A DNA stretch of 64,000 nt from a virus (lineage: Duplodnaviria; Caudoviricetes): the IMG/VR virus record IMGVR_UViG_3300043694_000018, positions 15,318-79,317 of that record, one strand, 5' to 3'. How positions within the stretch are numbered: position 1 is the stretch's first letter; the number at the start of each line of letters is the position of its first letter. The translations under genes and the position numbers were made by a program. Below are positions 36,275 through 64,000 of this stretch, in pieces. The notes under the pieces are model-generated. The model made no database searches and was not told where the DNA came from. It worked only from the letters and a program-made list of their open reading frames with translations.

Positions 36275-36321
36275 GGATGCCCTAATATCAGGCTGCCCGC
36301 TTTCGGTAAACAGCATCATGG

Positions 36322-36693
36322 TCATTGCGGCAAGTTCGATTCGGTGTAGCCGAAGCGCTCCATCAGTGCGTGACGACAGTTCTCGATCTGCACGAGGAAC
36401 AGGCGCTCCCAGAAGAAGTCGGAGCGGACCATCCGGTCGAGCAGCTTCTCGTTGTGCCGGTGCTGCGCCTCCTCCCACATCATGGCGTAAGCGCGCGCTT
36501 CGATCATGGTCTCGCGGTCGTACAGCGTCTCCGGCAGCTTGATGCCGCGCTCGCGCAAGGCCTTGATGGCGCTCCCGGCCGCTGCGATCACTTGCTGCTC
36601 GTTGAGCACCGGCCCGCTCATCGGCGTCAGGCTCTGCGTCGCGACGAACTCCAGCATGTCCTTCGGCGGCTTCGGCAGATCGTTCGTGCTCAT
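36322..36693 (-). CDS. Hypothetical protein
   Basis: Start MSTNDLP overlaps the upstream stop. Confidence 0.5.
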   Translation of the reverse strand: MSTNDLPKPPKDMLEFVATQSLTPMSGPVLNEQQVIAAAGSAIKALRERGIKLPETLYDRETMIEARAYAMMWEEAQHRHNEKLLDRMVRSDFFWERLFLVQIENCRHALMERFGYTESNLPQ

Positions 36694-37013
36694 AGGCCCT
36701 CCATGAACTCGGCGTCGCCTGTCACGATGATGACAGTGCCGACGAGGTAGTCGCCGATCTCGGACGGCTGGCGGTCGAGCGCGCGCGCCCACAGCAACGT
36801 GGCCTGCGCGTTGAAGGGCAACTTCTTGTTCTTCCCATCCTCGTCGCAGAAGGCGACGCACTGCTGGCCCTCGTAGACGTAGAAGCTCGGCACCGCCTCG
36901 ACGTAGCCGCCGTTCAGCGCGGGCTTGATCAGTTCGAGAATGTTCTGCGGGTCGGTGGTGTCGATGCGCGAGATCGGTCGATCCGGGCGCACGATGTGAA
37001 GCGATCCGTTCAT
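36690..37013 (-). CDS. DUF3846-like protein
   Basis: GGYVEAV..CDEDGK.K.LPFN..AT..LVGTVIIV. Confidence 0.65.
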   Translation of the reverse strand: MNGSLHIVRPDRPISRIDTTDPQNILELIKPALNGGYVEAVPSFYVYEGQQCVAFCDEDGKNKKLPFNAQATLLWARALDRQPSEIGDYLVGTVIIVTGDAEFMEGL

Positions 37014-37345
37014 GACGACAGCCTCCTCATGTGCAAGAGCGCGATGCAGAGCATGATCGGCAGAACCGGCACGCCGTCGATCAGCGTCGCGCGGTCGAAG
37101 TCGAGCGCACCGTCGAGCAGGCTGCGCATGCCGCTTTCGTCGTGGGCGAGATCGTCGGCACTGATGTCACGTTCCTTCTGCATGCGCTCGAAGATCAGGC
37201 GCAGCGCACCCAGCGCAGCATTGACGCGGGCCTCGGTCATCACCTCCTCGGGCTCCACGTCGTAGCTCTCGCGCAGCAGGGCGCGCGCCTTCTCTACCCA
37301 CTCGGGCGTGATGTACTGGACGATCTCGCGCGGGATGCCCTTCAT
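37010..37345 (-). CDS. Hypothetical protein
   Basis: Coupled ORF. Confidence 0.55.
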   Translation of the reverse strand: MKGIPREIVQYITPEWVEKARALLRESYDVEPEEVMTEARVNAALGALRLIFERMQKERDISADDLAHDESGMRSLLDGALDFDRATLIDGVPVLPIMLCIALLHMRRLSS

Positions 37346-37596
37346 TCGGCCTTCTCGATGTGCTGCTTGGCGGCTTCGAGCGCACTGTCGATCTGCGCCT
37401 CCAGATCGGGCACGGTGATCTTGAGCGCCTCCCGCCTGATCTTCTGGAGCGTCACGACCAGCAGGACGTTGGCCTCCTCCAGCGCGTTCTTCTGTTTGAC
37501 CAGCTTGGTGATCTGGCCGTGCAGCGCGCCCAGCCGGTCGTTGATCGCGCTGCTCAGGTCATCGACGCGCTTCATCAGTTCTTCGGTCGTCGGCAT
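37342..37596 (-). CDS. Coiled-coil hypothetical protein
   Basis: RBS GGAGGAG before MPTTEE. Confidence 0.55.
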   Translation of the reverse strand: MPTTEELMKRVDDLSSAINDRLGALHGQITKLVKQKNALEEANVLLVVTLQKIRREALKITVPDLEAQIDSALEAAKQHIEKAE

Positions 37597-37598
37597 GC

Positions 37599-37901
37599 TC
37601 ACTCCTCCACGGGCTGGGGCTTTTTGGCGAGGCGGTTGACGGCTTCGGTCAACAGGGCCGCACGCTGGATAATGTACTGGTCGCGGCATGCCTCCTCCTC
37701 GTTCTCGCTGCGCGCCTTGGTCAGGCAGTCATCGTAGGTCTTGCGCGCCGCCTTGACGCGGTTGTCCCAATCGTCGGCGCGCAGCACGCAGGTCGACAGG
37801 CCGATCAGGATCACCGCGCCGAGCACGGTGAAGAAGGCGTCGCGCAGCCGTCGAAAGGCGCAGAACGCCGATACGACCAGCAGGATGACGACGAAGATCA
37901 T
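37599..37901 (-). CDS. Membrane-anchored hypothetical protein
   Basis: MIFVVILL.., two hydrophobic segments. Confidence 0.5.
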   Translation of the reverse strand: MIFVVILLVVSAFCAFRRLRDAFFTVLGAVILIGLSTCVLRADDWDNRVKAARKTYDDCLTKARSENEEEACRDQYIIQRAALLTEAVNRLAKKPQPVEE

Positions 37902-38257
37902 CGCAGCGCACTCCGGCGGCCAAGCTGCTTGCCGATCAGTTCGGCCCCGACCTCGTCGCGGGCGTCGCTCTGCTTGACCCACGTGATTACGCCCGTGGCG
38001 GTCACGCCAGTCTCGCCGATCAGCACGCCGACCAGATCGCGGTCGCGCACGAGTTCGGGCATCTCCTCCTCCAACTTCTTGAGCCGGGCCTCGATGGGTC
38101 CCTCGTACTCGAAGACGCCTGCCTCGTTCATGCCGGTGTCGCGCACCGGCATCTTGACGCCGATCAGGTGAATCCGCTGGTAGCTATCGCCCATCACGAA
38201 CGACACGCGCCGGGTCTTCCAATTGCTCACGCCGCGCGGGCGACCCCGTGGCATCAC
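37898..38257 (-). CDS. Hypothetical protein (AT-hook-like N-terminus)
   Basis: PRGRPRG. Confidence 0.5.
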   Translation of the reverse strand: MMPRGRPRGVSNWKTRRVSFVMGDSYQRIHLIGVKMPVRDTGMNEAGVFEYEGPIEARLKKLEEEMPELVRDRDLVGVLIGETGVTATGVITWVKQSDARDEVGAELIGKQLGRRSALR

Positions 38258-38550
38258 GCCCTCCCCCGGATCGCTTCGCGCTCGCCGATCTGGCGGTCGA
38301 TCTCCGTGGCGATGGCGATCAGATCGCGCTCGATCTTGTTGAGGGCTTCGCGGCGCGCGATATGCTCATGGTAGGCAAGCGACGCCGCGTCACCCTTGGG
38401 GCTGGTGGCGATGGTCTGGTAGTCGCGGCCGTGGACCGTGAGGGCGCTCATCGCAGCTTGCGCGGCCTGTATGGCGTGGATGGCGTCGAGGTATTCCTGC
38501 TTCAGGACCTCGGCGTTCGTGCCGTTGATGTTGATCTGAGGAAACTGCAT
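38254..38550 (-). CDS. Hypothetical early protein
   Basis: ACACAGGAG leader; MQFPQININGT. Confidence 0.6.
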   Translation of the reverse strand: MQFPQININGTNAEVLKQEYLDAIHAIQAAQAAMSALTVHGRDYQTIATSPKGDAASLAYHEHIARREALNKIERDLIAIATEIDRQIGEREAIRGRA

Positions 38551-38572
38551 TGTCATTCTCCTGTGTTTCGAT

Positions 38573-38588
38573 GCCCTCAATTTAGGGC
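38573..38588. promoter_or_regulatory. Palindromic operator around the -10 box of a minus-strand promoter
   Basis: GCCCTCAATTTAGGGC; minus strand TTGTAG-17-TAAATT. Confidence 0.75.
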
Positions 38589-38616
38589 GTGACCGGGAGA
38601 ACTACAAGCCCTCTCG

Positions 38617-38820
38617 TCACTGGCCGCACTGGTCGGGGAACGGTTCCTGCCCCTTGTGGATGCGGGCGTCGTTCGTCGTCTTCAGGTTGGCCCGGCAGGT
38701 CTCGACGGCCTTGCTCCGGGCGATGCCGTCGCCGATCAGGTAGCCGGTCAGCAGCACGGCACAGCCGCTCGTGCTCAGCGCAACGCCCGCCAGTACGCAC
38801 GCCATGGCAAGACGCTTCAC
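38617..38820 (-). CDS. Small lipoprotein
   Basis: ALSTSGC lipobox-like motif. Confidence 0.5.
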   Translation of the reverse strand: MKRLAMACVLAGVALSTSGCAVLLTGYLIGDGIARSKAVETCRANLKTTNDARIHKGQEPFPDQCGQ

Positions 38821-39056
38821 GATGTCACCTTGGCCAGCGTGGCGTAGCAGTTCATGCCCGCCGTGGTGCGGACCTCCGTGCCATTGGCCAGCGTGAACGA
38901 GAACGCGCCGCTGTTCACGGCGAGGTCGTAGGCGTCCTTCCACGTCTGCGCGCCGGGATAGGTCTGGCACGTGACATTCCATGGGCCGCGCGGCGTGGCG
39001 GCGGCGACACTGGTGGCCGCGCAAACCAGCGCGGCGATGGCAAAAACTCGAATCAC
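38817..39056 (-). CDS. Small secreted protein
   Basis: Signal peptide IRVFAIAALVCAATSVAAA; two Cys in the mature part. Confidence 0.55.
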   Translation of the reverse strand: MIRVFAIAALVCAATSVAAATPRGPWNVTCQTYPGAQTWKDAYDLAVNSGAFSFTLANGTEVRTTAGMNCYATLAKVTS

Positions 39057-39063
39057 TCAACAC

Positions 39064-39113
39064 CTTCCTTTCGACGCCCTAAGCCCGCGTCAGCTTTTCA
39101 GGGCTGAGCGGGC
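39064..39113 (-). promoter_or_regulatory. Conserved hairpin leader element, copy A
   Basis: Plus strand GCCCGC-g-TCAGC/GCTGA-GCGGGC; followed on the minus strand by TAGGGCGTCGAAAG. Confidence 0.55.
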
Positions 39114-39141
39114 CGGGTTCCTGTGGTAGATCGGGGTGGTT

Positions 39142-39176
39142 GCCGGGCGGCCAACACAGGACACAAACCGCCCGGC
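39142..39176. ncRNA. 9-bp hairpin with a 17-nt loop matching the early-gene leader motif
   Basis: GCCGGGCGG-CCAACACAGGACACAAA-CCGCCCGGC. Confidence 0.4.
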
Positions 39177-39229
39177 GTCCCCCACGCGAGAGGGAGCGGC
39201 TTCCCATCCGCTCCCTCCCTCCCAAGTTC

Positions 39230-40348: not shown

Positions 40349-40402
40349 TGAAGTGGTAGTTCCTGTGTTTGCTCCGGCTGCCGGGATGGTCCCGCCGGGC
40401 AC

Positions 40403-40435
40403 CACAGAGATAGGCTCACTGAAAAAGTTTTGCAA
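40403..40435 (-). promoter_or_regulatory. Sigma70-like promoter
   Basis: TTGCAA-17-TATCTC. Confidence 0.55.
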
Positions 40436-40444
40436 GCCCCTGAT

Positions 40445-40487
40445 GCCCTTTTTTGAGGGCCTATGGATTGTGCCCTATTTTGCGGGC
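40445..40487. promoter_or_regulatory. Operator pair
   Basis: GCCCTTTTTTGAGGGC (40445) and GCCCTATTTTGCGGGC (40472). Confidence 0.7.
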
Positions 40488-40684
40488 ATGACCACATCCA
40501 GCTTGCGGGGTGCCCGCTGGGTGGCGTGGTAGGTGCAGAAGTGGCCGATCCGGGCCGGGCGCTTGCACTGGTAGGCTGGCTTGGCCGTGGTCGGCGGCAG
40601 CACAGCGGCGAGGCAGCGCGCCGGGTCGACCGGCGGCTGGTCCTCCCTCGGCGAGTACAGGCAGCGCAGCGGCAGGGTGCTCAT
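40475..40684 (-). CDS. Small Cys/His zinc-binding protein
   Basis: RC..QCKRP..HFCTYH. Confidence 0.5.
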   Translation of the reverse strand: MSTLPLRCLYSPREDQPPVDPARCLAAVLPPTTAKPAYQCKRPARIGHFCTYHATQRAPRKLDVVMPAK

Positions 40685-40872
40685 GCCGGGGCCTTCTCCT
40701 CGGGCGCGTGGCTGCGCAGCGGGAAATCGCGGGTGGTGTGGCACTTCCACGTGCTGTTCGGCTTGTGCGGGTCCGTCACCCACTTGTAGCTGTACTCGGT
40801 CACGCCGGTCTTGATCAGCGTGATCTGCGCGCCGCACTTGGCACAGGTCGCGGTCTTCGTCATCGGCATCAC
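40681..40872 (-). CDS. Small zinc-finger protein
   Basis: CAKCG..C..H. Confidence 0.5.
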   Translation of the reverse strand: MMPMTKTATCAKCGAQITLIKTGVTEYSYKWVTDPHKPNSTWKCHTTRDFPLRSHAPEEKAPA

Positions 40873-41075
40873 GGGAACTTCTCTTTCAGGTCGTCCAGCA
40901 CCGACAGGCTCACCTCGGCGAGCCCGCCCAGAACTCCGTGCATGGCGTTCGCCAAGTCGCGGGCCTCACCCGGCTTCAGCGGCTTGTCGTCGCTGTTGTA
41001 GAGCCGGGTCATGACGCGGCGCAGCTTGGCGACCTCCATGCCGTCGATCACGAAGTCCTTGTCCTCGTCGCTCAT
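40869..41075 (-). CDS. Hypothetical protein
   Basis: Coupled ORF. Confidence 0.55.
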   Translation of the reverse strand: MSDEDKDFVIDGMEVAKLRRVMTRLYNSDDKPLKPGEARDLANAMHGVLGGLAEVSLSVLDDLKEKFP

Positions 41076-41667: not shown

Positions 41668-41702
41668 GCCCTCAATTTAGGGCGCGTCGTCGTTGCTTTC
41701 AA
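41668..41702 (-). promoter_or_regulatory. Promoter with operator around -10, start codon directly after
   Basis: TTGAAA-17-TAAATT-GAGGGC-ATG. Confidence 0.75.
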
Positions 41703-42490: not shown

Positions 42491-42607
42491 TACACTCTCC
42501 CCATGTCCCCTTTGTAGGGCATGCAATCTGCGATTGACAAGGATGGAATTGTCCGACTGCGGCGCTCAGGTATTACCCCCAAAGCGCTCTTGCCTAACCT
42601 TTCGGGA

Positions 42608-42793: not shown

Positions 42794-42794
42794 C

Positions 42795-43445
42795 TCACAC
42801 CTCCCCCGGATCGGCGTTGATCGCCGCGTCGCGCAGTTCCTCCAGCGCGGCCTCGTAGTCCGACTCGGCCTGTTCCTTGGCGTCGGCCTGTTCGGTCAGG
42901 TACTGCTCCCACGCGGTGGTCGCCCAGTCCTGAACGGCGTCGAGGTAGTCCTCGACCGTCGCGAGGTCGAGCCGTTCGGGCTCCGGCATCGAGTAGTTGT
43001 CGAGGAAGTCCTCGAAGCTCTGCTCCTCCGGCTCCTCCAGTTCGGGCTGGTCGAGGCCTTCGATCTCGTCGGCCCACGTCTCGCAGTTCTGGATGCGCTC
43101 CTGAAGCATCTCGCCGGTCGCGCCCTGTTGCAGGCCCTCCGGCATGTTGTCGAGGCTGCCTTGGCACTCCTCACCCAGCGACCTGATCTCGCCCGCGATC
43201 TCCACGAGCGCGTCATACAGGCCGTCATCGAGGCTGAGGTCGCCCATCTGTTCGCTGAAGCTACGCCACTGGCTCTTGAAGCTCGACCGCGTCAACTGGC
43301 TGGGACGCGGGTACGCCTTGCTGACGACCTTGGTCCCCGGCCCGCGCTGGTTCTTGAACGTCCACCAGTAGTACGTGTCACCCACCGCGATCCCGGCATG
43401 CGGGATCGCCTTGCGGGCGCGCTCGACCTTATTGACGCGCGGCAT
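42795..43445 (-). CDS. Acidic hypothetical protein
   Basis: 216 aa, typical codon bias. Confidence 0.65.
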   Translation of the reverse strand: MPRVNKVERARKAIPHAGIAVGDTYYWWTFKNQRGPGTKVVSKAYPRPSQLTRSSFKSQWRSFSEQMGDLSLDDGLYDALVEIAGEIRSLGEECQGSLDNMPEGLQQGATGEMLQERIQNCETWADEIEGLDQPELEEPEEQSFEDFLDNYSMPEPERLDLATVEDYLDAVQDWATTAWEQYLTEQADAKEQAESDYEAALEELRDAAINADPGEV

Positions 43446-43755: not shown

Positions 43756-43777
43756 GTCACTCTCCTGTGTTGTTGTG

Positions 43778-43797
43778 ACGCCCTAAATTTAGGGCGT
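43778..43797. promoter_or_regulatory. Perfect 20-bp palindromic operator over a -10 box
   Basis: ACGCCCTAAATTTAGGGCGT; minus strand TTGAAA-17-TAAATT. Confidence 0.85.
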
Positions 43798-44540: not shown

Positions 44541-44566
44541 GTCACGCCCTAAATAGAGGGCGTGAC
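44541..44566. promoter_or_regulatory. Operator with 10-bp inverted arms
   Basis: GTCACGCCCT-AAATAG-AGGGCGTGAC. Confidence 0.8.
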
Positions 44567-45173: not shown

Positions 45174-45179
45174 GATGGT

Positions 45180-45237
45180 CCTGTGTTGGTTCTCTCGACT
45201 CCCCGACCCCGCTCACGGGTCCTAACCGTGGCGGGGT
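45180..45237 (-). promoter_or_regulatory. Conserved hairpin leader element, copy B
   Basis: ACCCCGC-t-CACGG/CCGTG-GCGGGGT plus a 24-bp block identical to 45841-45864. Confidence 0.65.
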
Positions 45238-45320
45238 TCTGGGGTGATGCCGGGGCTCGACCCGGCGGCTGCATTTCCTAGGCCGTCCCCGACACTCCGG
45301 GGTGCTTCGCCCTCCCCACC

Positions 45321-45349
45321 AAGATGGGGATGCTGAAAGATTTTTGCAA
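45321..45349 (-). promoter_or_regulatory. Sigma70-like promoter
   Basis: TTGCAA-17-CATCTT. Confidence 0.5.
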
Positions 45350-45352
45350 GCC

Positions 45353-45832
45353 CTAAAAAGAGGACATCAAAACCTCGTACTTTTCGCTCAGCCCGCGCAC
45401 GAGATCGGCAGCCTCAGAGAAGGTATCGGCCGGGACGCGCAGGGTCTCGACCGGGTGCTGCCCGGCATCTGGGCCGCTCATCAGCGTCGCGTTGCCGTTG
45501 ACGTATTGCACCGTCCAGAGCGTCTGGACCTTGGCCTTTGGGTTGGCCACGACCACGTCGAGCGGCTTGCGGTTGAAGCTATCGTCCAACAGCGTCGCCC
45601 GCTCGTACTCGTAGACCTTCGAGCCGGGGAACGTGTCGAACACGATGCGCCCGGTGGTCCGGCCCTCGGCGACCAGCCTGCGGCTGGCGTGGCAGCCAGT
45701 CTTGAACTCCATGCGGGAGTTGTGCTTGCGCTCGCCCCAGCTTGGCTTGTAGGCGTACTTCGCCACGTTGGCCTCGCGGCCGTCCGTGAGCTTCACGCGC
45801 TCGGCCGTCACTCGATAGACATACGCACCCAT
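45353..45832 (-). CDS. Hypothetical early protein
   Basis: ACACAGGAG leader; AKYAYKP motif. Confidence 0.6.
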   Translation of the reverse strand: MGAYVYRVTAERVKLTDGREANVAKYAYKPSWGERKHNSRMEFKTGCHASRRLVAEGRTTGRIVFDTFPGSKVYEYERATLLDDSFNRKPLDVVVANPKAKVQTLWTVQYVNGNATLMSGPDAGQHPVETLRVPADTFSEAADLVRGLSEKYEVLMSSF

Positions 45833-45840
45833 TGAACTCT

Positions 45841-45899
45841 CCTGTGTTGGTTCTCTCGACTCCCTGACCCCGCGTCAGGTTCTCAGGCCTGAGCGGGGT
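45841..45899 (-). promoter_or_regulatory. Conserved hairpin leader element, copy C
   Basis: ACCCCGC-g-TCAGG/CCTGA-GCGGGGT plus the shared 24-bp block. Confidence 0.65.
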
Positions 45900-45907
45900 T
45901 GCGGGGG

Positions 45908-46870: not shown

Positions 46871-46955
46871 ATGGTCCTGTGTTTCCGGGCCACGGCGGCC
46901 CACCACAGAGATGGGGATTTGCAAAAAATTTGCAAGCCCCCGATCTCGATTTCAT

Positions 46956-47007
46956 ATGCCCTGCAATTAGGGCATGGTGGTTATTGCACAGGCCCTGAAA
47001 TTAGGGC
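46956..47007. promoter_or_regulatory. Operator pair
   Basis: ATGCCCTGCAATTAGGGCAT (46956) and GCCCTGAAATTAGGGC (46992). Confidence 0.75.
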
Positions 47008-47538
47008 ACGCTCCAGCCCGGCCTTGGACCGGCGCAGCTTGCGCAGGGCGTTCTCGGCCCGGCGGGCCTTGGCCTCCCATCGCTCGATCCGGGCGGTGAC
47101 GCTCAGCAGCTTGAGCGCGCGGACCTCGGCCTTGTCGGGCTTCGGCTTCGGCTCAGGCTTGGCCTTCGGCAGATGCCAGCCCTTCCTGACCACGTAGTCG
47201 ACCATCGCCTTCTCCAGCGCCGCGTGGACGTGGGAGTGCGTCAGCTTGCCGGGGTGCATGACCTCGAACAGGTAGTGGCTGCAATCGTGAACCATGCGGC
47301 CGAGACCGTTGTGCCCGCCGTTGGCGTAGCGCTTCGTGTCCTGCGGCTTGGTGTTCGCCCAGCACCGCCGACCCCGGCGGAACCATGACGGCATCCGCAG
47401 GTAGATCGGGTCAATGTCCGGGTGCTTGGCGAACTTCGCGAACAGCTTGGCTGCCAGCGGCACGACCTCGGCCTTGGTGATCGGGGGGAGGATCGCTCCT
47501 CCCCACGCCGCGCCCACGTCGTCGTAGCTCACGGTCAT
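46981..47538 (-). CDS. Hypothetical protein (possible HExxH-like zinc site)
   Basis: MVHDCSHY..HSHVH. Confidence 0.6.
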   Translation of the reverse strand: MTVSYDDVGAAWGGAILPPITKAEVVPLAAKLFAKFAKHPDIDPIYLRMPSWFRRGRRCWANTKPQDTKRYANGGHNGLGRMVHDCSHYLFEVMHPGKLTHSHVHAALEKAMVDYVVRKGWHLPKAKPEPKPKPDKAEVRALKLLSVTARIERWEAKARRAENALRKLRRSKAGLERALISGPVQ

Positions 47539-47864
47539 GCGAGCCTCCGACCCTTGGCGCTGATGCGCGCCCAGTCCGACATCGAGACGCTTTGCTCGGC
47601 CCCGCCGTCGTGCAGCCAGATCAGCCGGGAGCCGGTCTCATCCTCGGCGACCCAGACGCGGCGGATGCCGCTGCCCAGTCGACGGAGGTAGTGGTCGGTG
47701 TTCGCGATGAAGACCTCCCAACGCTCGGCGTCTTCGTAGCGCTCGCCCTCGGGCCTGCGCGCCTTGAAGCGCTTGCGCCGGGGCTTCACCTCCACCGGCT
47801 TCTGATCTCTCGACCGCCGCAGGAACGCGGGGATCGCGAGATCGTCATCACTCATCAACAACAT
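47535..47864 (-). CDS. Hypothetical early protein
   Basis: ACACAGGAG leader; DLAIPAFLRR motif. Confidence 0.6.
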   Translation of the reverse strand: MLLMSDDDLAIPAFLRRSRDQKPVEVKPRRKRFKARRPEGERYEDAERWEVFIANTDHYLRRLGSGIRRVWVAEDETGSRLIWLHDGGAEQSVSMSDWARISAKGRRLA

Positions 47865-49316: not shown

Positions 49317-50263
49317 AGTCCCTCTCTACGCAAGTAGACCTCGTGATAGGTGAACGGCTCGCCCTCGGCGCGCCAGCGCTCCTGCATTGCCTTGGTGACG
49401 TGATCGATGGGCAGCCAGACCGGCGGCGCGTCCTTGTCGCCCGGCCCGAACGAGCCGGAGGCGAAGTTGAGCCCGATGAACCCGGTCAGGTCCTCGATGT
49501 CCGCCCCGAAGCGCTTCATCGAGTAGGGCCAGAACTCGAAGAACACCAGCGCGCAGTCGCGCAGCAGACGCTTGCCGCCCGCGAAAATCTGACCCTCCGA
49601 GCCCTGCACATCCATCTTGACCACGACCGGCTGCCGCAGCGCCGCCGGGTTGAACGCATCGTCCAGCCGCACCGCGTTGACCGGGATGACGGCGCGCTTG
49701 TCCTCCAGCAGGAGCCCGGTGGCGTCGACATGGATGCGGTGATCGCCGTGATTGTCGGGGTCGACCTCGAACTTGATGATGCCGGTGCGGTCCCAGACCG
49801 CGACGTTGAACATCTGCACATTACCGTGGCGGCAGAGCCGGGCGACGTTGTGCGCGAGATGGCGGAAGTTGTCGGGCTCGGGCTCGAAGGCCCTGCACTC
49901 GACGCCGGGCACGGCGGCAATCGGGATCGTCGTCAGGCCGATGTTGGCCCCGATGTCGATGTAGGTGCCGCCGCGATGGAACTCGAAGAAGTCGATGACC
50001 ACCCGGTTGAACTCGGCGACCGGCCAGTTCTTGTCCTTGACGTAGGTCGCCATGATGTGCGTGTCGGCCAAGCTGCCCTCGATCAGGCCGCAGTCGCCCA
50101 TCACGTTGATGTCACGCACGCCGTACTTGCGGCCGATGGCTTGGAAAAGCTCGTAGCTAACCGGCCCTTCAATCAGGGCATCCACCACAGCCCTGCGGGT
50201 GTTGTCCGGCAGGTGCGCCACGGCGGCCGTGATCGCTTTGCGCGCCGTTGAGCGCAGCGTCAC
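49313..50263 (-). CDS. FkbM-family SAM-dependent methyltransferase
   Basis: YIDIGANIG..AFEPEP.N..AVWD..RLDD..VKMDVQGSE..FFEF. Confidence 0.85.
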   Translation of the reverse strand: MTLRSTARKAITAAVAHLPDNTRRAVVDALIEGPVSYELFQAIGRKYGVRDINVMGDCGLIEGSLADTHIMATYVKDKNWPVAEFNRVVIDFFEFHRGGTYIDIGANIGLTTIPIAAVPGVECRAFEPEPDNFRHLAHNVARLCRHGNVQMFNVAVWDRTGIIKFEVDPDNHGDHRIHVDATGLLLEDKRAVIPVNAVRLDDAFNPAALRQPVVVKMDVQGSEGQIFAGGKRLLRDCALVFFEFWPYSMKRFGADIEDLTGFIGLNFASGSFGPGDKDAPPVWLPIDHVTKAMQERWRAEGEPFTYHEVYLRREGL

Positions 50264-53494: not shown

Positions 53495-53790
53495 GATGTC
53501 CCCTCTTTAGGGCTTGGTGCAGCGCCTGTCGCTGTGGATAAGTAGGCCCGCAACTCGCGGCGCATGCGCTGGCGCGTCCAGTTCGTCCACCAGTCGTCAT
53601 GGGCCGGGCGGCCCTTTGGCAGCGACTGGCGCACGATCAGACCGTTGTCGAAGCTCGCCACCATCACGGTGTGCTTGCCGCCGTTCTCCCAGCGGATGCT
53701 GGTCGCCCCTTCCTCACGCGCCGCGTTCTCGGCGAGACGTGCGTGCTTGACGTTGGGGCGTGAGGTCCTGTTCGAGCGCGTGGCCATCAC
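53485..53790 (-). CDS. Possible HicA-like RNase-fold protein
   Basis: ENGGKHTVM..; size about 100 aa. Confidence 0.35.
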   Translation of the reverse strand: MMATRSNRTSRPNVKHARLAENAAREEGATSIRWENGGKHTVMVASFDNGLIVRQSLPKGRPAHDDWWTNWTRQRMRRELRAYLSTATGAAPSPKEGTSCP

Positions 53791-56287: not shown

Positions 56288-56322
56288 GCCCTGAAATGTA
56301 GGGCATGGAAAGAATTTTGCAA
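56288..56322 (-). promoter_or_regulatory. Promoter with operator (9-nt spacer variant) around -10
   Basis: TTGCAA-16-TACATT-TCAGGGC-ATG. Confidence 0.65.
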
Positions 56323-58043: not shown

Positions 58044-58237
58044 GATCGCTTCGCCTTCTTGCCGCGCGGCTTGGCAACCGGCGGCTTGGGCCAGACGATC
58101 CTGACCGCGTCGGCGGTGATGTCGTAGGCGCGGCGACAGGCGAAGCGGCGGTTCCGCTTCAGATGGTGCTGGCGGATCATCTCGACCAGTTCCCAGACCT
58201 CGTCTTGTCGGCGCTGCGGCCCGGTGCGGTAGTTCAT
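58040..58237 (-). CDS. Small basic protein
   Basis: Coupled ORF. Confidence 0.45.
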   Translation of the reverse strand: MNYRTGPQRRQDEVWELVEMIRQHHLKRNRRFACRRAYDITADAVRIVWPKPPVAKPRGKKAKRS

Positions 58238-59073
58238 CGCCTGAACCGTGCAGCCCAGCGGACGAGCGCTGCCTGCACCTCCTGATCGTCACTGGCATGA
58301 TCGGCCAGCCGTCGATCCGGCATGTACGGCCGGAGCGCGCGGCGCAGCAGCGTGCGCACGGTGTCGGGCTCCATCGCGTCGATCTCGACCGCCTCATCGA
58401 CCTCGAAGCCCTTGCGCTTGTCGCTCGCCTTGGGCGGGCGCGTCAACAGGCCGTAGGTCGCGATGTGCTCGGGCAACACGGCGACGCGCTTGAACTCGAT
58501 GGGCACGTTGACCACCAGTTCGCGCAGCTTGCGCTCAGCGGCGTGAACCATCTGGAGCCCGGAACTGTCGTGGTCGCCGACTTGCAGCACCACGGTCTGC
58601 TTGCGCCCGGCGCGGATACGCTTGGCGGCGCGCCACAGGAAGCTGTGGCCGCTGTAGCCCATGGTCGGGAACAGCGGCACGCCCCACGGATACGTCACCG
58701 AGCGCAGCACTGGCCCCATGCCGACCTTCTCCGAGAAGACCAGCACCAGCTTCTTGGCGTTGCGCCATGGATCGGAGCGGTACTGCGGGATCACACTGTC
58801 GAGGAAGTGCTGCGGGTCTTCCCACATCGGCGGTTCATCGATGTCGCGGCTTTCATCGATGATCTTGTCGCGGCTGACGCGGCCCTCGTCGCGCAAGGCA
58901 ACCAGTGCCTTCTGCACGCGCTCGTACTCCTGCTCGGTCTTGTCGATGACGCGCTGACCGACCAGCAGGTAGAAGATGCGGCGAACCGTCAGGTCCTCTT
59001 TGGATGCCTCGACGGTGGCGACGATGTCGTCGTAGAACTGGGCCATCTCGGCCTTGGTGCTTCGCTTGCTCAT
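58234..59073 (-). CDS. Winged-helix + TOPRIM protein (Topo VI-A/Spo11/JetD-like); start uncertain
   Basis: LTVRRIFYLLV..; VFSEK; GDHDSSG; FKRVAV..; VEIDAM. Confidence 0.75.
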   Translation of the reverse strand: MSKRSTKAEMAQFYDDIVATVEASKEDLTVRRIFYLLVGQRVIDKTEQEYERVQKALVALRDEGRVSRDKIIDESRDIDEPPMWEDPQHFLDSVIPQYRSDPWRNAKKLVLVFSEKVGMGPVLRSVTYPWGVPLFPTMGYSGHSFLWRAAKRIRAGRKQTVVLQVGDHDSSGLQMVHAAERKLRELVVNVPIEFKRVAVLPEHIATYGLLTRPPKASDKRKGFEVDEAVEIDAMEPDTVRTLLRRALRPYMPDRRLADHASDDQEVQAALVRWAARFRR

Positions 59074-59121
59074 GGACCGCCACATAAGCGGCCCGCCTCC
59101 CATAGTCAACCACATGCCCTC

Positions 59122-59153
59122 AAAAAAGGGCGGCAGCCGTGAAACTGCCGCCC
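59122..59153 (-). terminator. Rho-independent terminator overlapping an operator (59116-59131)
   Basis: Minus strand GGGCGGCAG-loop-CTGCCGCCC-TTTTTT. Confidence 0.75.
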
Positions 59154-59166
59154 CCTCTTGCATGTT

Positions 59167-60108
59167 CTACTCGACCAGTTCGTGCAGCTTCTTGGAGATG
59201 TCGGACTTGATCGCACTGATCTGGCGCGCCTGACGGAAGGCGTTCCACGCGAAGGCACAGCCCTGATAGAACTCCGCGCCCTTCACGTCGTACTCGTCTT
59301 CCTTGTCCTCGTGGATGGACTTGAGCCACGTGTCGAGCAAGGTGCTCGGCGCGCGGTCGTTGTAGTCGTCACCACCACGTGCGACCTCGTGCCAGAAGCC
59401 TTCGGCCGCCGACTGGTTCTTCTGGTAGGTGCCATAGATCGCCGCGACGATGGGCGTCTTCTTCAGTTCCGGCGTCTTGCTCGACAGTACCGTGTCGAGC
59501 CAGATGATGAACTTGCGCGCGCCCGCGTCCTTGAAGATCGCGTAACGGTCATCACCCGTCGCCACGGGCAGGCGTTCGAGGAACTTCTCGTACCACGCGA
59601 TGCCCTCGGCTGCGGTCTTGGCGGTGTCGCGGTTGACCTCGGCCAGATCAGGATACAGACCCTGATATGCCCCCGACACGTCGGCGGGCGAGCGGCTGGA
59701 GATGCGATCATCGAACTGGCGGAACAACAGCGCCATGTCCTCCGGGGTGTCCACCTCGTACTCGGTGTAGAACACCATACCGTTCTCGGGGAACAGCACG
59801 TCTTCCAAGCCCATGAGCATGCCGCCGGAGTGCTGGCCGTTCATGCGGTACTTGGTGCCCTTGAGGATGGCAACGCTCCAGTTGAACGGCACGAGCAGCC
59901 CGCGTTCGGCCTTGCCGCGCAGGTGCTTCATGCGGTTCGGATCGTTGACGCGCTCGGTCGGCGAGGGCGTCATCGTGCGGAACTCCTCGGTGAACTCGCG
60001 CGTCAGAGGCCGCACCTCGGCCTTGGCGAGGCGGAAGCCGACCTTGGGTGGCGGGGCCACGTAGGGTTCTGTCACGGTCTCAGCAGTATCAACAACAGTA
60101 TCGGGCAT
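59167..60108 (-). CDS. ParB/DndB-like N-terminal domain protein
   Basis: RMNGQHS (DGQHR-like) and FRQFDD..SRSPAD. Confidence 0.5.
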   Translation of the reverse strand: MPDTVVDTAETVTEPYVAPPPKVGFRLAKAEVRPLTREFTEEFRTMTPSPTERVNDPNRMKHLRGKAERGLLVPFNWSVAILKGTKYRMNGQHSGGMLMGLEDVLFPENGMVFYTEYEVDTPEDMALLFRQFDDRISSRSPADVSGAYQGLYPDLAEVNRDTAKTAAEGIAWYEKFLERLPVATGDDRYAIFKDAGARKFIIWLDTVLSSKTPELKKTPIVAAIYGTYQKNQSAAEGFWHEVARGGDDYNDRAPSTLLDTWLKSIHEDKEDEYDVKGAEFYQGCAFAWNAFRQARQISAIKSDISKKLHELVE

Positions 60109-60170
60109 GGCCGATCATCCATGGGAGCCAATGAAACGAAGCCGGTGAGCGAGGTCCCTGTTCGCTGCGG

Positions 60171-60977
60171 CTACTCTGCCCATTCCTTCAGGTAGCGCTC
60201 GAAAAGGCCGAGATGCTTCAGCACGATTGGCGGGGACCAATGTGCCATGTGATCGTTGGCCTGTTCTTTGAGCGCTTTGAGGATAGGCATGAGTTTCTCG
60301 GTCAACTCATGGACAGTGACCGTTTTGTCTGCCGGGAACAGACGCCAATGGCGCTTCGTCCCAACCTTCTTGCTCTCGACCTTGAGCCCGAACAGGCCTT
60401 GGTCCTGAGCGTTCTGGAGAGTGTCGCTGACGTGCTGCACGTCCTCGACCTCGATCTCGGCGGCGATCTTCTCGGCCGGACGCCATTTGCCATCGATGAT
60501 GCCGCTTTCAAGGATGTCCTTCTTGAGCGACGGCCGCTTCGGCTTCGGCGCATCCGGGTCGGGCGGCGCGGTCAGCTTGCGGTAGACCTCCTTGAAGCGG
60601 TCGCGCTCGTCGCCCTTCTTGGTGCGTTCCCAAACCCCCCGGAATTTGCGCTCGGTCAGGTCAGCCGGAAGTGGGGGCGAATCTGGATTTATGCCCATGG
60701 GCATAAAATGAAGAAACCGCCCGAAAGTGAGTCGCCGCGCTACCCACGACTGGCTCTTGCCTTCCTTCTCGGCCAGCTTCTCCTGCGGCCAGCCGGTGCG
60801 CAGGAACAGTTGCGCCCACGCCTGATCGCGCTTCGCCAGAACTTCCTTGTCGGCCGCATCGGGGCCGCCGTACAGGCGCTCCAGTTCGGCGCGCTGGCGG
60901 TCGTACTCCATCTCGCTCATCGTCTGATTGCTGACGAGCGGTGGTGGGAGTTCGGGCTGGTCGAACATATCGGGCAT
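60171..60977 (-). CDS. HTH DNA-binding protein (ParB/KorB-type helix)
   Basis: GWPQEKLAEKEGKSQSWVARRL. Confidence 0.65.
   Translation of the reverse strand: MPDMFDQPELPPPLVSNQTMSEMEYDRQRAELERLYGGPDAADKEVLAKRDQAWAQLFLRTGWPQEKLAEKEGKSQSWVARRLTFGRFLHFMPMGINPDSPPLPADLTERKFRGVWERTKKGDERDRFKEVYRKLTAPPDPDAPKPKRPSLKKDILESGIIDGKWRPAEKIAAEIEVEDVQHVSDTLQNAQDQGLFGLKVESKKVGTKRHWRLFPADKTVTVHELTEKLMPILKALKEQANDHMAHWSPPIVLKHLGLFERYLKEWAE
60678..60730 (+). repeat. 53-bp exact direct repeat, copy 2 (inside the HTH gene)
   Basis: Identical to 8291-8343. Confidence 0.95.
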
Positions 60978-60984
60978 TGATCGC

Positions 60985-61040
60985 GGACTAGCATGTGGTC
61001 AAAAATGTTGCAAGCGGCATTACTGCCCCAATTTGCGGGC
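60985..61040 (-). promoter_or_regulatory. Leftward promoter plus operator
   Basis: TTGCAA-17-(TGc)TAGTCC, 7 nt to ATG; operator GCCCCAATTTGCGGGC at 61025. Confidence 0.55.
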
Positions 61041-61303
61041 ATATGTCGGACGGGCCGCTGCACCCGGCGGGGGATTCCGCCGGGCCAGCCTGCCGTCCAG
61101 AGTTCCGTCTTACTCACCAATGCACCGCCCGAAGACGATGTGCGGCCGAGTTTGACCATGGCCGACCCCCTTAGAACGCGTTCTGGGCTAGGGTCGGCGT
61201 AGGCAGAAGCGGATTGGTGCAAAGTCCACTGGCGCTCCGAGCGTAGTATCTGCCAATGGGGAGGACGCCGCACAGCCCACGTTTCATGGGCTCGATATGA
61301 ACC

Positions 61304-61338
61304 TTGCGAAAGTTTTTTGCAAGCCCTATCTTGCGGGC
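61304..61338 (+). promoter_or_regulatory. Rightward promoter with operator around -10
   Basis: TTGCGA-17-TATCTT-GCGGGC-ATG. Confidence 0.75.
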
Positions 61339-61548
61339 ATGACCAAACACGAACTCATCGCCTACGCCACGCGACTCGGCTTCTCGCTCGGCTTCAACTC
61401 GGATGGCACGGTCGACGTGTCGAACCGCTCCGGCACCTGCGTCATCCGTGGCCAGACCTTCGCCGAGGTCGAGGAAGGCCTGCGCGGCATCGACAATCCC
61501 ATGCTGCGTGACGCCTTGCAAAAACCTTTCGTTGGCCCTAAATCGTGA
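61339..61548 (+). CDS. Hypothetical protein, probably leaderless
   Basis: ATG 6 nt after the -10 box. Confidence 0.55.
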   Translation: MTKHELIAYATRLGFSLGFNSDGTVDVSNRSGTCVIRGQTFAEVEEGLRGIDNPMLRDALQKPFVGPKS

Positions 61549-61943
61549 CCATGACCCTCAGACAGATCGTGCGTGCGCTCGGCGGTCCTTACCGTGCCAG
61601 CGTCGCCTACAACACCATGGCCGACGAGGCCAACAAGAAGCTGCGTGCCGACACCGGCCTTGCCGGTGATGCACTGCGGGCGCATCCTCTCTACCTCGAC
61701 GCGCTCAGCCGTCCCCGGCTCGACTACTGGCTCAAGGTCAACGCCCCGCGTTGGGCAGGCCCGTATATCGGTCGGCTCGCTGAGCTTGCAGCACAGCGGG
61801 AGAGGGAAGATGGCCAAGCGCAAAAAGCCGACAAGGGGTCGCCGGGCGACCGATCACGCCGACTTCACAGGGTCGACGGCCAATCGACGCGCAGTCGAGC
61901 GGCTGGCCGCGAGCGGCGAGCGCAAGACCAAGCGACGGCGTAA
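61545..61943 (+). CDS. Cro-like small DNA-binding protein (tentative)
   Basis: LRQIVRALGG..; long 3' overlap with the next gene. Confidence 0.35.
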   Translation: MTMTLRQIVRALGGPYRASVAYNTMADEANKKLRADTGLAGDALRAHPLYLDALSRPRLDYWLKVNAPRWAGPYIGRLAELAAQREREDGQAQKADKGSPGDRSRRLHRVDGQSTRSRAAGRERRAQDQATA

Positions 61944-62475
61944 AGGCGAGGGAAATGGGTCGCTCGGGCTGGATGGCGGCAACGTCGGCGGCCCGAGCGA
62001 CGAGTGCATCCACCGCCACGTGCGCGACATCCGGGGCCAGCAGGCCCGGCTGAAGTCGGCGCTGAAGAAGGCCAGCGACGAGCGCAAGACGCTCAACGCC
62101 TACTACAAGTCGGCCGAGGGCGACGGCATGGATACCGCCGCGCTCAAGAAGGCCTTCAAGGATTCCGACCGGCCGATGGGCGAGGTCGTCGCCGAGCGCC
62201 GCAACATCGCCCGCTACGAGAAGATCATGGGCGGCCCGGTCGGCACCCAGTGGTCGCTGCTCGACGGCGACAACGCCATCGCGCTCGACGCCTACGCGCA
62301 GGGCGAGCACGCTGGCCTGAACGGCGAGCCACGCGACAACTGCCCGTTCCTGCCCGGCTCCGAGGACTACAATCGCTACATGGCGGGCTGGCAGGCCGGT
62401 CAGATGCGGCTCGGCAAGGAGAAGTTCGGCGCTGGGCCGGGCGACGAGATTCCTCCGGCCCCGCCTGAAGCGTGA
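61810..62475 (+). CDS. GapR/DUF2312-like coiled coil fused to an RMF-like C-terminal domain
   Basis: K.LNAYYKSAEGDGMD.AALK; AYAQGEHAGLNGEPRDNCPF..GWQAG. Confidence 0.6.
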   Translation: MAKRKKPTRGRRATDHADFTGSTANRRAVERLAASGERKTKRRRKGEGNGSLGLDGGNVGGPSDECIHRHVRDIRGQQARLKSALKKASDERKTLNAYYKSAEGDGMDTAALKKAFKDSDRPMGEVVAERRNIARYEKIMGGPVGTQWSLLDGDNAIALDAYAQGEHAGLNGEPRDNCPFLPGSEDYNRYMAGWQAGQMRLGKEKFGAGPGDEIPPAPPEA

Positions 62476-63005
62476 GGTTGCTCGCGCTCGACATCGGTGG
62501 CCAGACCGGCTGGTGCCTGATGGAGCGGCACGTGACGCCGCGCTTCGGCACCATCGATCTCGACGGCACCAAGACGTTGTTCGGCAAGCTCGGCCTGTTC
62601 AACGACCGGCTCGACACGATGTTCTCGACCGAGAAGTTCGACGGCATGGCGTGGGAGCAACCGCTGCAAATGCCGTGGGACAAGATCGACCAGCTTCGGC
62701 TGCTGTATGGGCTCAACGCGCTCGCGATGAGGTTCGCATGGTCACACGATCTGCCATGGCGCGAGGTCACGGTGTCCGAGGCAAAGGCCACCATCAAGGG
62801 CGACCGCGAGGTGCCGCACGGCCTGCCCAAGCACAAGGCGCGCGCCATGGGCAAGGCGATCATGATGGCGGGCGCAAAGGACATGGGCTGGCCGGTCAAG
62901 AACCACGACGAGGCGGACGCGGGCGCGGTGGGGCTGGCCGCCTACAGCGTCATCTGGCCAAGGTCGTCCGAGACAGCGTCGACCGCTACACGTGGGACGG
63001 CATAG
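62472..63005 (+). CDS. RuvC-like Holliday junction resolvase
   Basis: LLALDIG..TGW..WEQP..NHDEADA. Confidence 0.75.
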   Translation: MRLLALDIGGQTGWCLMERHVTPRFGTIDLDGTKTLFGKLGLFNDRLDTMFSTEKFDGMAWEQPLQMPWDKIDQLRLLYGLNALAMRFAWSHDLPWREVTVSEAKATIKGDREVPHGLPKHKARAMGKAIMMAGAKDMGWPVKNHDEADAGAVGLAAYSVIWPRSSETASTATRGTA

Positions 63006-63099
63006 CGGTGCTCGCCAAGAAGACCAACAAGACCGTCGAGCAGACGATCATCGACGCGCTCTATTCGTACTTCCACATACTGGTGGGGCCTGACATGCG

Positions 63100-63300
63100 A
63101 TGACCGACCAAGAGCACATCGAGCGGCTAGAGAAGGTGCTGCGGCTCGGGCAGGAGATGCGCAAGGCGCAGACCCAGTATTTTCGCCATCGCACTGAAGA
63201 CTTGTTGCTCCGCTCGAAGGAACTGGAGCGCCTGTTCGACTTCGAGTGCGTGGAGGCGCTGGACGAGCCCTCAATTCCGGGCTTGCGGCCCGAGCCATGA
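63100..63300 (+). CDS. Hypothetical protein
   Basis: MR.AQ..YFR..L..SKELE..FD motif. Confidence 0.55.
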   Translation: MTDQEHIERLEKVLRLGQEMRKAQTQYFRHRTEDLLLRSKELERLFDFECVEALDEPSIPGLRPEP

Positions 63301-63341
63301 TTGGTCACAACCCCGGTACTTGGATGCCCTGAAATCCGGGC
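63267..63341. promoter_or_regulatory. Operator pair
   Basis: GCCCTCAATTCCGGGC (63267) and GCCCTGAAATCCGGGC (63326). Confidence 0.6.
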
Positions 63342-64000
63342 GTAAGGTGCGGCTCGTGCGGACAGCGGGAGGCCCCAACCACCCGTTGCTCGGTCGGCCC
63401 CCACTCTCCCCCAGAAAGCAGGTGCCAACGGCCGGGCTCACGCACACCTTTCCCGGCCTGACCGAAAGCGTACAGTACCACCCGTGCGGACAGCGGCGGC
63501 GTCTCACTACCCACCCCTTGCTGCCGTTGCCGGGCTAAGGCGTCCTTCCTGCCCCCCAAGGTGTCGGCCGTCTCCCCCACAGCCCGGCTAACGCACGCTC
63601 TTGCCATGGTCGACATGCCCTGATAAGCGGACATCGAGGAACACAGGACGATGGAACTCGGTCAGGGATCGGGCGTTGGCACGGGGCTTGCGGGACATCC
63701 CCTCACGCACCACGTCTTCGCCAGCCCTTTCCCGGTTCGGATGTCAACCACCGCATAGGAGCTATCCACAGCACAATTTGTTCGATGAGAGCTTGCGCTG
63801 GGCCGCCCTGACGGCGCAGCGTGGGGCTGTGCGGGGAAAGCGGCGACGGTCGTTTCCTCGTCCCAGATCACTTCGACCCTGTCGTGATCTGGAAGGGATA
63901 CCCGCACTCCTCGCCCTCTTTCGACAGGGTCCTGCCCATGATGTTGCAATTCGAGGTCCGTCTGGTTCCAGTCCTCGGACACTGACCAGTGTCCGGGCTC

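Follow-up and report, generated by a model that had tools for sequence, protein, structure and literature searches.

Dispersed palindromes over and beside the promoters of a myovirus-type phage are probably operators of a small Aca2-like helix-turn-helix protein

Aca2 is a dimeric helix-turn-helix (HTH) protein that binds the inverted repeat TTCG-N6-CGAA in its own promoter, and a variant with an N8 centre more weakly, and blocks the -35/-10 region (PMC6765145). Across the Aca families, one inverted repeat (IR1) lies in the core promoter, often with a second (IR2) nearby (PMC9410906), and some Aca proteins are predicted to control neighbouring operons (PMC13551039). Here we describe a palindrome, GCCC-N8-GGGC with an AT-rich centre, that recurs throughout a 64,000-nucleotide (nt) stretch of phage DNA (the window), which comprises bases 15318-79317 of one 79,317-base-pair (bp) viral contig of 65% G+C; coordinates are window positions unless stated, and negative ones lie to its left. 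The first-pass annotation of the window, made from the letters alone, did not recognise this kind of motif; we find that it follows Aca-type logic, with an inverted repeat inside the core promoter (PMC9410906, PMC6765145). The palindromes are probably operators of a small phage-encoded XRE/Cro/Aca2-like HTH protein, the product of 35972-36325, and the best reading of the system is a dispersed operator regulon made from an Aca-type autoregulator, that is, a variant on known dispersed-operator control and on Aca autoregulation.

The P1 C1 repressor and the repressor of Streptomyces phage phiC31 each act through many dispersed operators at many early or lytic promoters. The P1 operators are asymmetric 17-mers, and those of phiC31 are 17-bp repeats bound by a larger repressor of another kind; to our knowledge, neither encloses the -10 hexamer as a rule. 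C proteins, lambdoid Cro/CI, 434 and P22 c2 have the same XRE fold as the candidate regulator (Z 5.3-7.2), and the 434 and P22 repressors are dimers on palindromes whose AT-rich, non-contacted centre matters. By contrast with the present case, C proteins and lambdoid repressors act at one or two control regions that hold 2-6 operators, and none is known to have its operator copied genome-wide or into genes. The stoperators of mycobacteriophages L5 and Bxb1 are dozens of dispersed sites for one repressor, found at early promoters and in the late arm (PMC9283540, PMC6550527); they are asymmetric 13-bp sites that are read by a two-domain monomer and act in one orientation (PMC9283540), whereas the sites described here are two-fold symmetric and several lie inside coding sequence. 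KorA and its operator OA from the IncP-1 plasmids RK2/RP4 resemble the present system in pairing a ~100-amino-acid (aa) HTH protein, dimeric in the case of KorA, with a short symmetric operator at several promoters, in having perfect and imperfect operator classes, and in having an Arg-guanine contact, predicted in the present case, as a main specificity determinant (PMC2665229). KorA differs in that its sites number seven, all at promoters, in its co-operation with the ParB-type KorB and in being plasmid-encoded (PMC2665229), and we found no sequence relationship between it and the candidate.

In its fuller form the motif is (R-Y)GCCCT-N6-AGGGC(R-Y), 16-20 bp long; an N7 centre also occurs. 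GCCC-N8-GGGC is found 24 times in the window, against 3.98 +/- 1.9 times in shuffled sequence. Across the whole genome we counted 17 perfect copies whose spacer is AT-rich (60 dinucleotide shuffles gave 0.0), 8 one-mismatch copies (0.75 in the shuffles) and 33 two-mismatch copies (12.8), and we put the real copies in the 79.3-kb genome at roughly 30-40, with about 15 degenerate ones besides the 17. All 15 cores listed in the first-pass annotation are present, among them the copy with a 9-nt spacer at 56288, and its degenerate copies near 36279, 42505, 53498 and 63617 were recovered at two mismatches. The annotation was mistaken in seeing no copy in 1-36 kb, which contains perfect copies at 4597, 5296, 10266, 18180 and 23320 and a degenerate copy at 14023; a further perfect copy lies at -191, immediately left of the window. 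Enrichment relative to the structural region is a matter of density (11 perfect copies in 36-64 kb against 5 in 1-36 kb, or ~2.8-fold) but not of absence. Paired copies are found, as described earlier, at 40445/40472, 46958/46992 and 63267/63326, stop codons are overlapped by copies 40472, 43780, 45350 and 47928, and copy 59116 overlaps a terminator-like hairpin (-33.8 kcal/mol, z -5.0). The 3' side and U-run of that hairpin, at 59100-59165 on the - strand, are the left half of the copy.

Genes were called with a crude in-house codon-bias caller, and their start codons are provisional. Genes on the + strand up to 32738 encode replication, packaging, structure and lysis functions; ~70 small genes run on the - strand from 60977 down to 32735; and a divergent gap of 361 bp (60978-61338) separates the latter from + strand genes that begin at 61339 and run past the end of the contig. 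Each copy of the palindrome was read on the strand of the local genes. At nine copies (-12579, 14023, 38573, 41668, 42505, 43780, 44546, 56288 and 61323) a TTG box lies 16-18 bp before the central hexamer, where ~2 such copies are expected by chance from 66 site-orientations, and at all of these save 42505 a start codon follows 0-30 nt downstream. In all, we read about a dozen promoters as having a copy over the -10. The register of the -10 copies is GCCC-TAAATT-GA-GGGC-A, with the arms at -16 to -13 and -4 to -1 and the next A at +1. An earlier assignment of the spacer as a -10 hexamer at five of these copies was upheld on the gene strand: 38573 (TTGTAG) and 41668 and 43780 (both TTGAAA) have TAAATT at 17 bp on the - strand, 61323 has TTGCGA, 17 bp and TATCTT on the + strand, and 56288 has TTGCAA, 16 bp and TACATT on the - strand. 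At 14023, 41668, 56288 and 61323 the predicted +1 A opens the ATG of the gene, and these promoters are candidates for the production of leaderless messages, with moderate confidence because the ATG also belongs to the extended palindrome (CATGCCC...GGGCATG). An extended ribosome-binding region, ACACAGGA(G/C), precedes ~12 start codons, for example in the leaders at 38551-38572, 43756-43779 and 45833-45907.

In about half of the copies the hexamer is poor (TCAATG, TAGAAA, TAAAAG) and a -35 box is lacking. These promoter-less copies lie either in coding sequence or 0-22 bp upstream of the -35 of a second class of promoter, which reads TTGCAA-16/17-(C/T)ATCT(C/T) or TCGACT-17-TAAAAT; the copies in the latter position are 40445/40472, 45350, 46958/46992, 47928, 61025 and, read on the - strand, 61323. 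At 40349-40474, 45174-45352 and 46871-46980 (- strand), the sequence TTGCAA-16/17-(C/T)ATCT(C/T)-tgtggtg is followed by GC-rich structured leaders, with a palindrome upstream of each -35. In the early arms, every promoter-like element that we found has a copy over its -10 or no more than 22 bp upstream of its -35. A dispersed operator over the -10 is the best-supported reading, as was first proposed, but the proposal that all copies clamp the melting region does not fit the half without a -35 box. The copies in and around the early arms, together with one in the tail module, are as follows (a strand is given where one is assigned).

14023..14038, + strand: degenerate tail-module copy, TTGCAC-18-(GGCC)TATAAA(GCGGGC), with ATG at 14039; G001, a related phage described below, has a copy at the homologous junction
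36279..36294, - strand: degenerate copy, AGCC TGATAT TA GGGC, immediately ahead of the HTH gene or within its 5' end
38573..38588, - strand: copy over a -10, TTGTAG-17-(GCCC)TAAATT(GAGGGC), then ACACAGGAG and ATG at 38550; kept in the related L110
40445..40487: two copies (40445-40460, 40472-40487) that precede the TTGCAA -35 of the DUF932-gene promoter by 9 bp; both kept in L110/L127
41668..41683, - strand: copy over a -10, TTGAAA-17-TAAATT, with ATG directly after GGGC; candidate leaderless start
42505..42520, - strand: degenerate copy, GCCC TACAAA GG GGAC, with TTGTCA at 18 bp
43780..43795, - strand: perfect 16-bp palindrome over a -10, TTGAAA-17-TAAATT, overlapping the TAA stop of the upstream gene
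44546..44561, - strand: copy over a -10, TTGAAC-16-TCTATT, with arms that extend to GTCACGCCCT/AGGGCGTGAC
45350..45365: copy with one mismatch, reading GTCC..GGGC on the - strand, directly against the TTGCAA -35 of a promoter of the second class
46958..47007: perfect pair (46958-46973 and 46992-47007) upstream of a TTGCAA promoter, with G001 and G002 copies at the homologous position; copy 46992 is within the 3' end of a gene, where it is written in rare codons
47928..47943: perfect copy, separated by 3 bp from the downstream -35 of TCGACT-17-TAAAAT; G001 has two at the homologous place
53498..53513, - strand: degenerate copy, GCCC TAAAGA GG GGAC, 3 nt ahead of the start of an exonuclease gene
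56288..56304, - strand: copy whose centre has 7 nt, TTGCAA-16-TACATT; ATG follows GGGC immediately
59116..59131: copy with its left arm and a T-run inside a terminator-like hairpin
61025..61040: degenerate copy 11 bp upstream of a TTGCAA box ahead of a 268-aa HTH/ParB-type gene
61323..61338, + strand: copy over the -10 of a rightward promoter, TTGCGA-17-TATCTT, with ATG at 61339; abuts a TTGCAA -35 on the - strand
63267..63341: two one-mismatch copies (63267-63282 and 63326-63341) without a -35 box
63617..63632, + strand: degenerate copy, GCCC TGATAA GC GGAC, ahead of ACACAGGAC and ATG

Between copies 63326 and 63617 lies a 300-bp GC-rich stretch without a gene call (63301-63600) in which CGTGCGGACAGCGG occurs twice. 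A separate palindrome, TTTATGCCCATGGGCATAAA, is found at 8297-8316 and inside 60171-60977; it has the half-site ATGCCC seen in the extended arms but no spacer, and the genes that adjoin it have no counterpart in G001 or G002.

The protein that we propose as the regulator is encoded at the distal end of the leftward early arm.

35972..36325, - strand: candidate XRE/Cro/Aca2-like HTH regulator, 117 aa in its record form (P0127); a 100-aa form would start at 36274

Its sequence carries an XRE-like signature, LYGxRWxS...RTVRRW, with the recognition helix ..NLRTVRRW.., and it is the sole recognisable DNA-binding protein among the few that the early arm has in common with G001 and G002, two IMG/VR phages with ~60% protein identity. 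A profile search returned 2353 relatives, and among 50 sampled family members Pfam assigned 28 to YdaS_toxin, 12 to HTH_3 and 6 to Aca2_YdiL (E <= 0.01); the product of 35972-36325 itself had no Pfam match above threshold, Aca2_YdiL (PF08965) included. Searched against the PDB, the family profile found YdiL and Aca2 chains at E 0.002. An AlphaFold2 (AF2) model of the protein has a mean predicted local distance difference test (pLDDT) score of 90.9 and a long C-terminal helix (residues 84-112) that could dimerise. Nearly all of the top 50 VIA-align matches to the model are XRE-type HTH domains over residues 29-99, with modest and uniform Z scores of 5.3-7.5. VIA-align was one of two structure searches, and the matches from both were almost exclusively XRE-type regulators: Aca10, Aca2, phage Rep, C-proteins, lambda cI, P22 c2 and 434. 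The predicted fold includes an XRE or lambda-repressor-like five-helix HTH domain with a recognition helix.

The main evidence linking this protein to the palindrome is comparative. A scan of IMG/VR with a four-sequence alignment identified 73 loci that encode homologues, three of which are G001-G003; in the other 70 phage loci the HTH gene is essentially the sole gene in common with the window phage. A fixed CCCT-N6-AGGG was not found near most of these homologues, and the same layout emerged once the arms could vary: most of the 70 loci have, 170-870 nt upstream of the HTH gene, a promoter of the form TTGnnn-17-arm-TAnnnT-arm', with 5-bp complementary arms and an AT-rich centre. Of 49 non-redundant helix/site combinations, 29 have such an arm-hexamer promoter ahead of the HTH gene, as do G001 and G002. 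The arms fall into the classes GTCCT/AGGAC, GTCGT/ACGAC, GGCGT/ACGTC, ATCCT, TTCCT, CGCCT, ACCCT and GCCCT. A C at arm position 4 is accompanied by Arg at the sixth helix position (RTxR; 27/27 loci) and a G by Gln (RTxQ; 7/7 loci, with A in one arm of L174), an association with a Fisher p of 1.9e-7 on counts that ignore shared ancestry. Similarly, the outer base is G with Arg at the seventh helix position in 29 loci, whereas five loci, and one mixed case, have A with Ser, Gly or Ala, C with Glu, or T with Tyr (p = 1.8e-5, ancestry again ignored). The pairing in the window, RTVRRW with GCCCT, fits this code, and the residue-base pairings make chemical sense (Arg-guanine, Glu-cytosine).

Two sister proteins, those of L202 and L204, differ by Ala versus Glu in the helix (RRVRAW versus RRVREW), and their palindromes differ correspondingly (ATCCT..AGGAT versus CGCCT..AGGCG). 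In both of these phages a TTGACT box directly adjoins the palindrome rather than lying 17 bp off. In a tree of the family, the Gln class forms no single supported clade and the non-Arg outer-base classes occur in at least three places; together with the difference between L202 and L204, this argues that the covariation arose in more than one event. From this covariation we infer that the HTH family reads the arms of the palindrome. The first-pass proposal that one dimeric regulator acts on these sites is borne out to the extent that a conserved XRE-type HTH family exists whose helix residues co-vary with the arms in ~35 phages; the dimer itself is a prediction.

In the other phages the palindrome is part of a recurrent unit: its promoter is followed by a conserved structured leader, next comes a small open reading frame (ORF) of 62-177 aa that varies between phages, and the HTH gene stands last. 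The genes ahead of the HTH gene in the window are small and unrelated. A leader of the form ..GACGGAAGGGGATTGGCCCCGCCG..AGGAG stands right after the palindromic promoter in L150, L163, L167, L175, L183, L185, L194, L209 and others; the ORF that follows differs in each phage, in an acr-aca-like layout, and the leader is a possible RNA motif. Because the layout of the cassette matches that of an Aca-type autoregulated operon, we read the palindromes of the window as probable operators of an Aca2/Cro-like dimer. As with Aca2 of Pectobacterium phage ZF40, a small HTH protein (dimeric in Aca2) is encoded last in a short operon, the small gene before it being variable; the core promoter holds an inverted repeat whose centre is 6 bp, often with a second repeat nearby, and a second spacing is tolerated. 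The structured leader conserved after the start site in the other phages is a further likeness to Aca systems, as is the proximity in profile and fold to Aca2/YdiL and Aca10. The inverted repeat inside the core promoter of the HTH protein's own operon was found in the other phages, and G001 and G002 have a motif-type promoter ahead of the HTH gene; the counterpart in this genome is the degenerate copy at 36279. The present system differs from Aca systems in that the operator encloses the -10 hexamer exactly, in that it has ~30 sites, including copies in late coding sequence, rather than one or two with at most a neighbouring operon, and in that no known anti-CRISPR gene was identified, homology to known anti-CRISPRs not having been searched.

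Copies of the motif are also found in closer relatives. CCCT-N6-AGGG occurs 11 times in G001 (56,956 bp), 7 times in G002 (66,649 bp) and 3 times in G003, against 0 for the reversed control pattern. The G001 and G002 copies are nearly all in intergenic promoters of the form TTGnAA-17-(CCC)TAnnnn(nAGGG), the outer base pair in G001 is A...T in place of G...C, and in both genomes extra copies flank the operon homologous to 47864-46981. Homologous copies are kept in a relative with a 91%-identical DUF932 protein (L110/L127); the motif is absent from L111 (72% DUF932 relative), which has few genes in common. A search for CCCTAWWWWNAGGG in five alphaproteobacterial metagenome-assembled genomes (MAGs; ~22 Mb) gave 0 matches in four (~20 Mb) and no excess over the control in the fifth. 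Since relatives carry copies while the MAGs show none or no excess, we regard the motif as belonging to the phage lineage rather than to the host. Exact-motif matches elsewhere in IMG/VR were single and chance-like and lay on unrelated contigs, and the full promoter-plus-motif pattern matched 68 loci, the known relatives among which were G001 and G002 only. A scan for a 39-bp piece behind the capsid gene gave no match.

The motif had been thought to be restricted to the early region. We found seven copies in coding sequence, of which five, all perfect, lie in late, structural genes on the + strand within the window. Perfect intragenic copies include the following.

4597..4612: codons CCT AGA AAC AGG GCA
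5296..5311: formed by the conserved peptide PYIKG with mostly common codons; also in G001 and G003
10266..10281: over the peptide ALKAGLD, with four synonymous changes relative to G001
18180..18195: perfect intragenic copy
23320..23335: codons CTA TCT TTA GGG (1%, 1%, 0% and 12% of synonymous use)
50164..50179: inside a methyltransferase-like gene

The coding-sequence copies are built on codons that account for 0-12% of synonymous use (CTA 1%, TCT 1%, TTA 0%, AGA 1%, GGG 12%), with the exception of 5296, which may be a by-product of protein sequence. The ALKAGLD peptide is encoded with GCG CTC AAA GCC GGC in G001 and with GCC CTA AAA GCA GGG here, and these four synonymous differences create the perfect palindrome. 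Non-promoter copies retain 96-97% identity in both arms; in promoter copies the identity of the downstream arm falls to 82% (CGGGC, GGAC), and a strong A-T follows the motif. The maintenance of both arms in promoter-less copies, and the recoding of genes with rare codons, indicate that the palindrome is selected for itself.

An alternative that we consider unlikely is that the motif is core-promoter architecture only, in which the host polymerase would recognise a C-rich extended -10 (CCC-TAnnnT) plus a G-rich discriminator and no dedicated regulator would exist; such promoters would resemble the sigma-32-type CCCTTGAA / CCCCATnT, with the symmetry arising from bidirectional promoters. The strong A then T after the motif in promoter copies fits a +1, CC(C) also precedes the TTG box, nearly all G001 and G002 promoters have the upstream CCC and often lack the downstream arm, and symmetric -10 regions for divergent transcription are common (bioRxiv 10.1101/2020.01.31.928960). 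However, the ~half of copies that lack a -35 and have poor hexamers are the most nearly perfect palindromes, rare synonymous codons build the coding-sequence copies, and the offset of the hexamer puts the two predicted starts ~17 bp apart rather than at the favoured 18 bp. Moreover, both arms shift together between phages (GCCCT/AGGGC, ACCCT/AGGGT, GTCCT/AGGAC, GTCGT/ACGAC), which would not be expected of an asymmetric polymerase contact, the motif is absent from the four MAGs, and the covariation with the recognition helix is left unexplained.

It is similarly improbable that a different protein binds the palindrome, be it the product of 42795-43445, 46981-47538 or 35628-35975, one of the ParB-like/HTH trio at 58234-60977, or a host regulator. 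Most early proteins are without a recognisable fold, copies stand on both sides of the operon 47864-46981 in each of the three related genomes, and the palindrome inside the 268-aa HTH gene has the same ATGCCC half-site. Against this, the 70 other phage loci with the same layout share the HTH protein and none of the alternatives, the product of 47535-47864 looks like an FtsZ-tail mimic and that of 46981-47538 is SprT-like at best. Two of these candidates were rejected: no homologue of the ParB-like trio was found in G001 (11 motif copies) or G002 (7), and a host regulator does not accord with the absence of the motif from four alphaproteobacterial MAGs (~20 Mb). The co-occurrence of motif and ParB-like protein expected of a ParB/KorB-type loading site was not found.

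Hairpins, whether N4-like DNA cruciforms at promoters, as the first-pass annotation had offered as an alternative, or RNA stem-loops in read-through transcripts that act in processing, stability, pausing or loading of the NusG-like factor, are a very unlikely explanation: arm changes between phages keep pairing (G-C to A-T, C-G to G-C), 43780 (-13.7 kcal/mol, z -3.3) and 23320 (z -3.1) fold better than shuffles and the genome encodes a NusG-like paralogue, but the recurrent one-arm variant (GGAC/GTCC) is never compensated and would give G-U rather than C-A in the transcript in only 2/7 cases, the AT-rich centre is conserved where a loop could vary, each promoter copy precedes its own predicted +1, the -35 boxes are ordinary TTG boxes at 17 bp (16-18 bp at the nine copies), 10266 and two pairs fold no better than shuffles (z 0.3, -0.8 and -1.7), there is no Rfam match, and covariation with helix residues is not predicted. 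No RNA polymerase gene was recognised among the proteins scanned, a scan that covered part of the proteins.

Several observations weigh against assigning the palindromes to the HTH protein. The window protein sits on a long branch, with no more than 39% identity to other members of the family, and the copy that adjoins its gene is degenerate. The covariation counts take related phages as separate cases, the tree of these short proteins is poorly resolved, and independent changes are few, at least three to four for the outer base and an unclear number for Arg/Gln. Other phages with a near-identical helix (RTVRRW) use GTCCT, not GCCCT, which leaves the reader of arm position 2 unsettled. The spacings of paired copies (17, 27, 34, 48 and 59 bp) have no common phasing. 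Finally, G001 and G002 retain the upstream arm (CCC) at more sites than they retain the downstream one, which raises the possibility that RNA polymerase itself reads part of the motif.

Matches to tail sheath, baseplate, tape-measure and capsid proteins identify the window as part of a myovirus-type phage. A megablast search of a phage collection with 20 kb of the sequence gave no match, so that the phage is without a close relative there, and searches with the capsid and "portal-region" proteins found only distant enterobacterial and Shewanella myoviruses. Among genomes, the closest capsid relatives come from MAGs of Alphaproteobacteria (Rhizobiales, Sphingomonadaceae, Stellaceae and Acetobacteraceae), from which we conclude that the host is probably an alphaproteobacterium. 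No integrase, classical immunity region or other lysogeny function was recognised in the phage. Among ~60 early proteins Pfam recognised no HTH or other DNA-binding domain, PHROGs gave no function for the conserved early proteins, and the ESM Atlas gave nothing useful for the products of 42795-43445 or 46981-47538.

Three other genes drew our attention. Outside the window, genome positions 4364-4888 (window -10954..-10430) encode a 174-aa NusG/RfaH-like protein with a KOW-like C-terminus; it is kept in G002 and L111, and a degenerate copy of the palindrome lies 45 nt upstream of the gene. The + strand gene at 62476-63005 has a RuvC-like resolvase signature (..LALDIGG.. in an upstream extension, ..HDEADA..). 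The 109-aa product of 47535-47864 (- strand) starts ..DDDLAIPAFLRR.., and its homologues P0122 and P0125 keep (D/E)L.IPAFLR. This start resembles the conserved FtsZ C-terminal peptide that binds FtsA/ZipA, and the protein could interfere with cell division.

We propose that the product of 35972-36325 would bind the palindromes as a dimer, with one recognition helix per arm, GCCCTAAATTTAGGGC being the operator DNA that it would contact via the arms. The operator would stem from a portable cassette present in many GC-rich phages, in which a sigma-70-type promoter with its -10 between the arms heads a series of leader, variable small gene and HTH gene, and would have multiplied in this lineage from the 1-3 copies of other phages to 7 in G002, 11 in G001 and ~30 here. 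Over a -10, the bound dimer would exclude RNA polymerase; beside or upstream of a TTGCAA-class -35, it would hinder, or possibly help, polymerase; and the copies in coding sequence would be roadblocks to elongation, decoys or looping partners. Given the distal position of the HTH gene in the leftward early arm, we predict delayed negative feedback, with joint shut-off of nearly all early promoters. Binding, dimerisation, repression and timing are inferred; what the analysis itself shows is the motif statistics, the geometry of the promoters, the recoding of copies in genes, the protein's fold and the covariation of helix and arms. It is possible, and we suggest this tentatively, that a portable acr-aca-like cassette with a two-residue/two-base code has had its operator copied to essentially every early promoter and into late genes, to give a genome-wide timer or silencer that would be an independent, symmetric, dimer-based counterpart of the stoperators.

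If this is correct, a one-promoter autoregulator of the Aca/Cro type can expand into a whole-genome regulon, with rare codons as a cost. The ~35 natural protein-operator pairs, in which two helix positions track two bases, would provide a test set for rules of HTH specificity, and the series may be of use for orthogonal repressor-promoter pairs. For this uncultivated phage, whose early genes are otherwise unannotated, the proposal would supply a function for one protein and a regulatory map of ~20 promoters.

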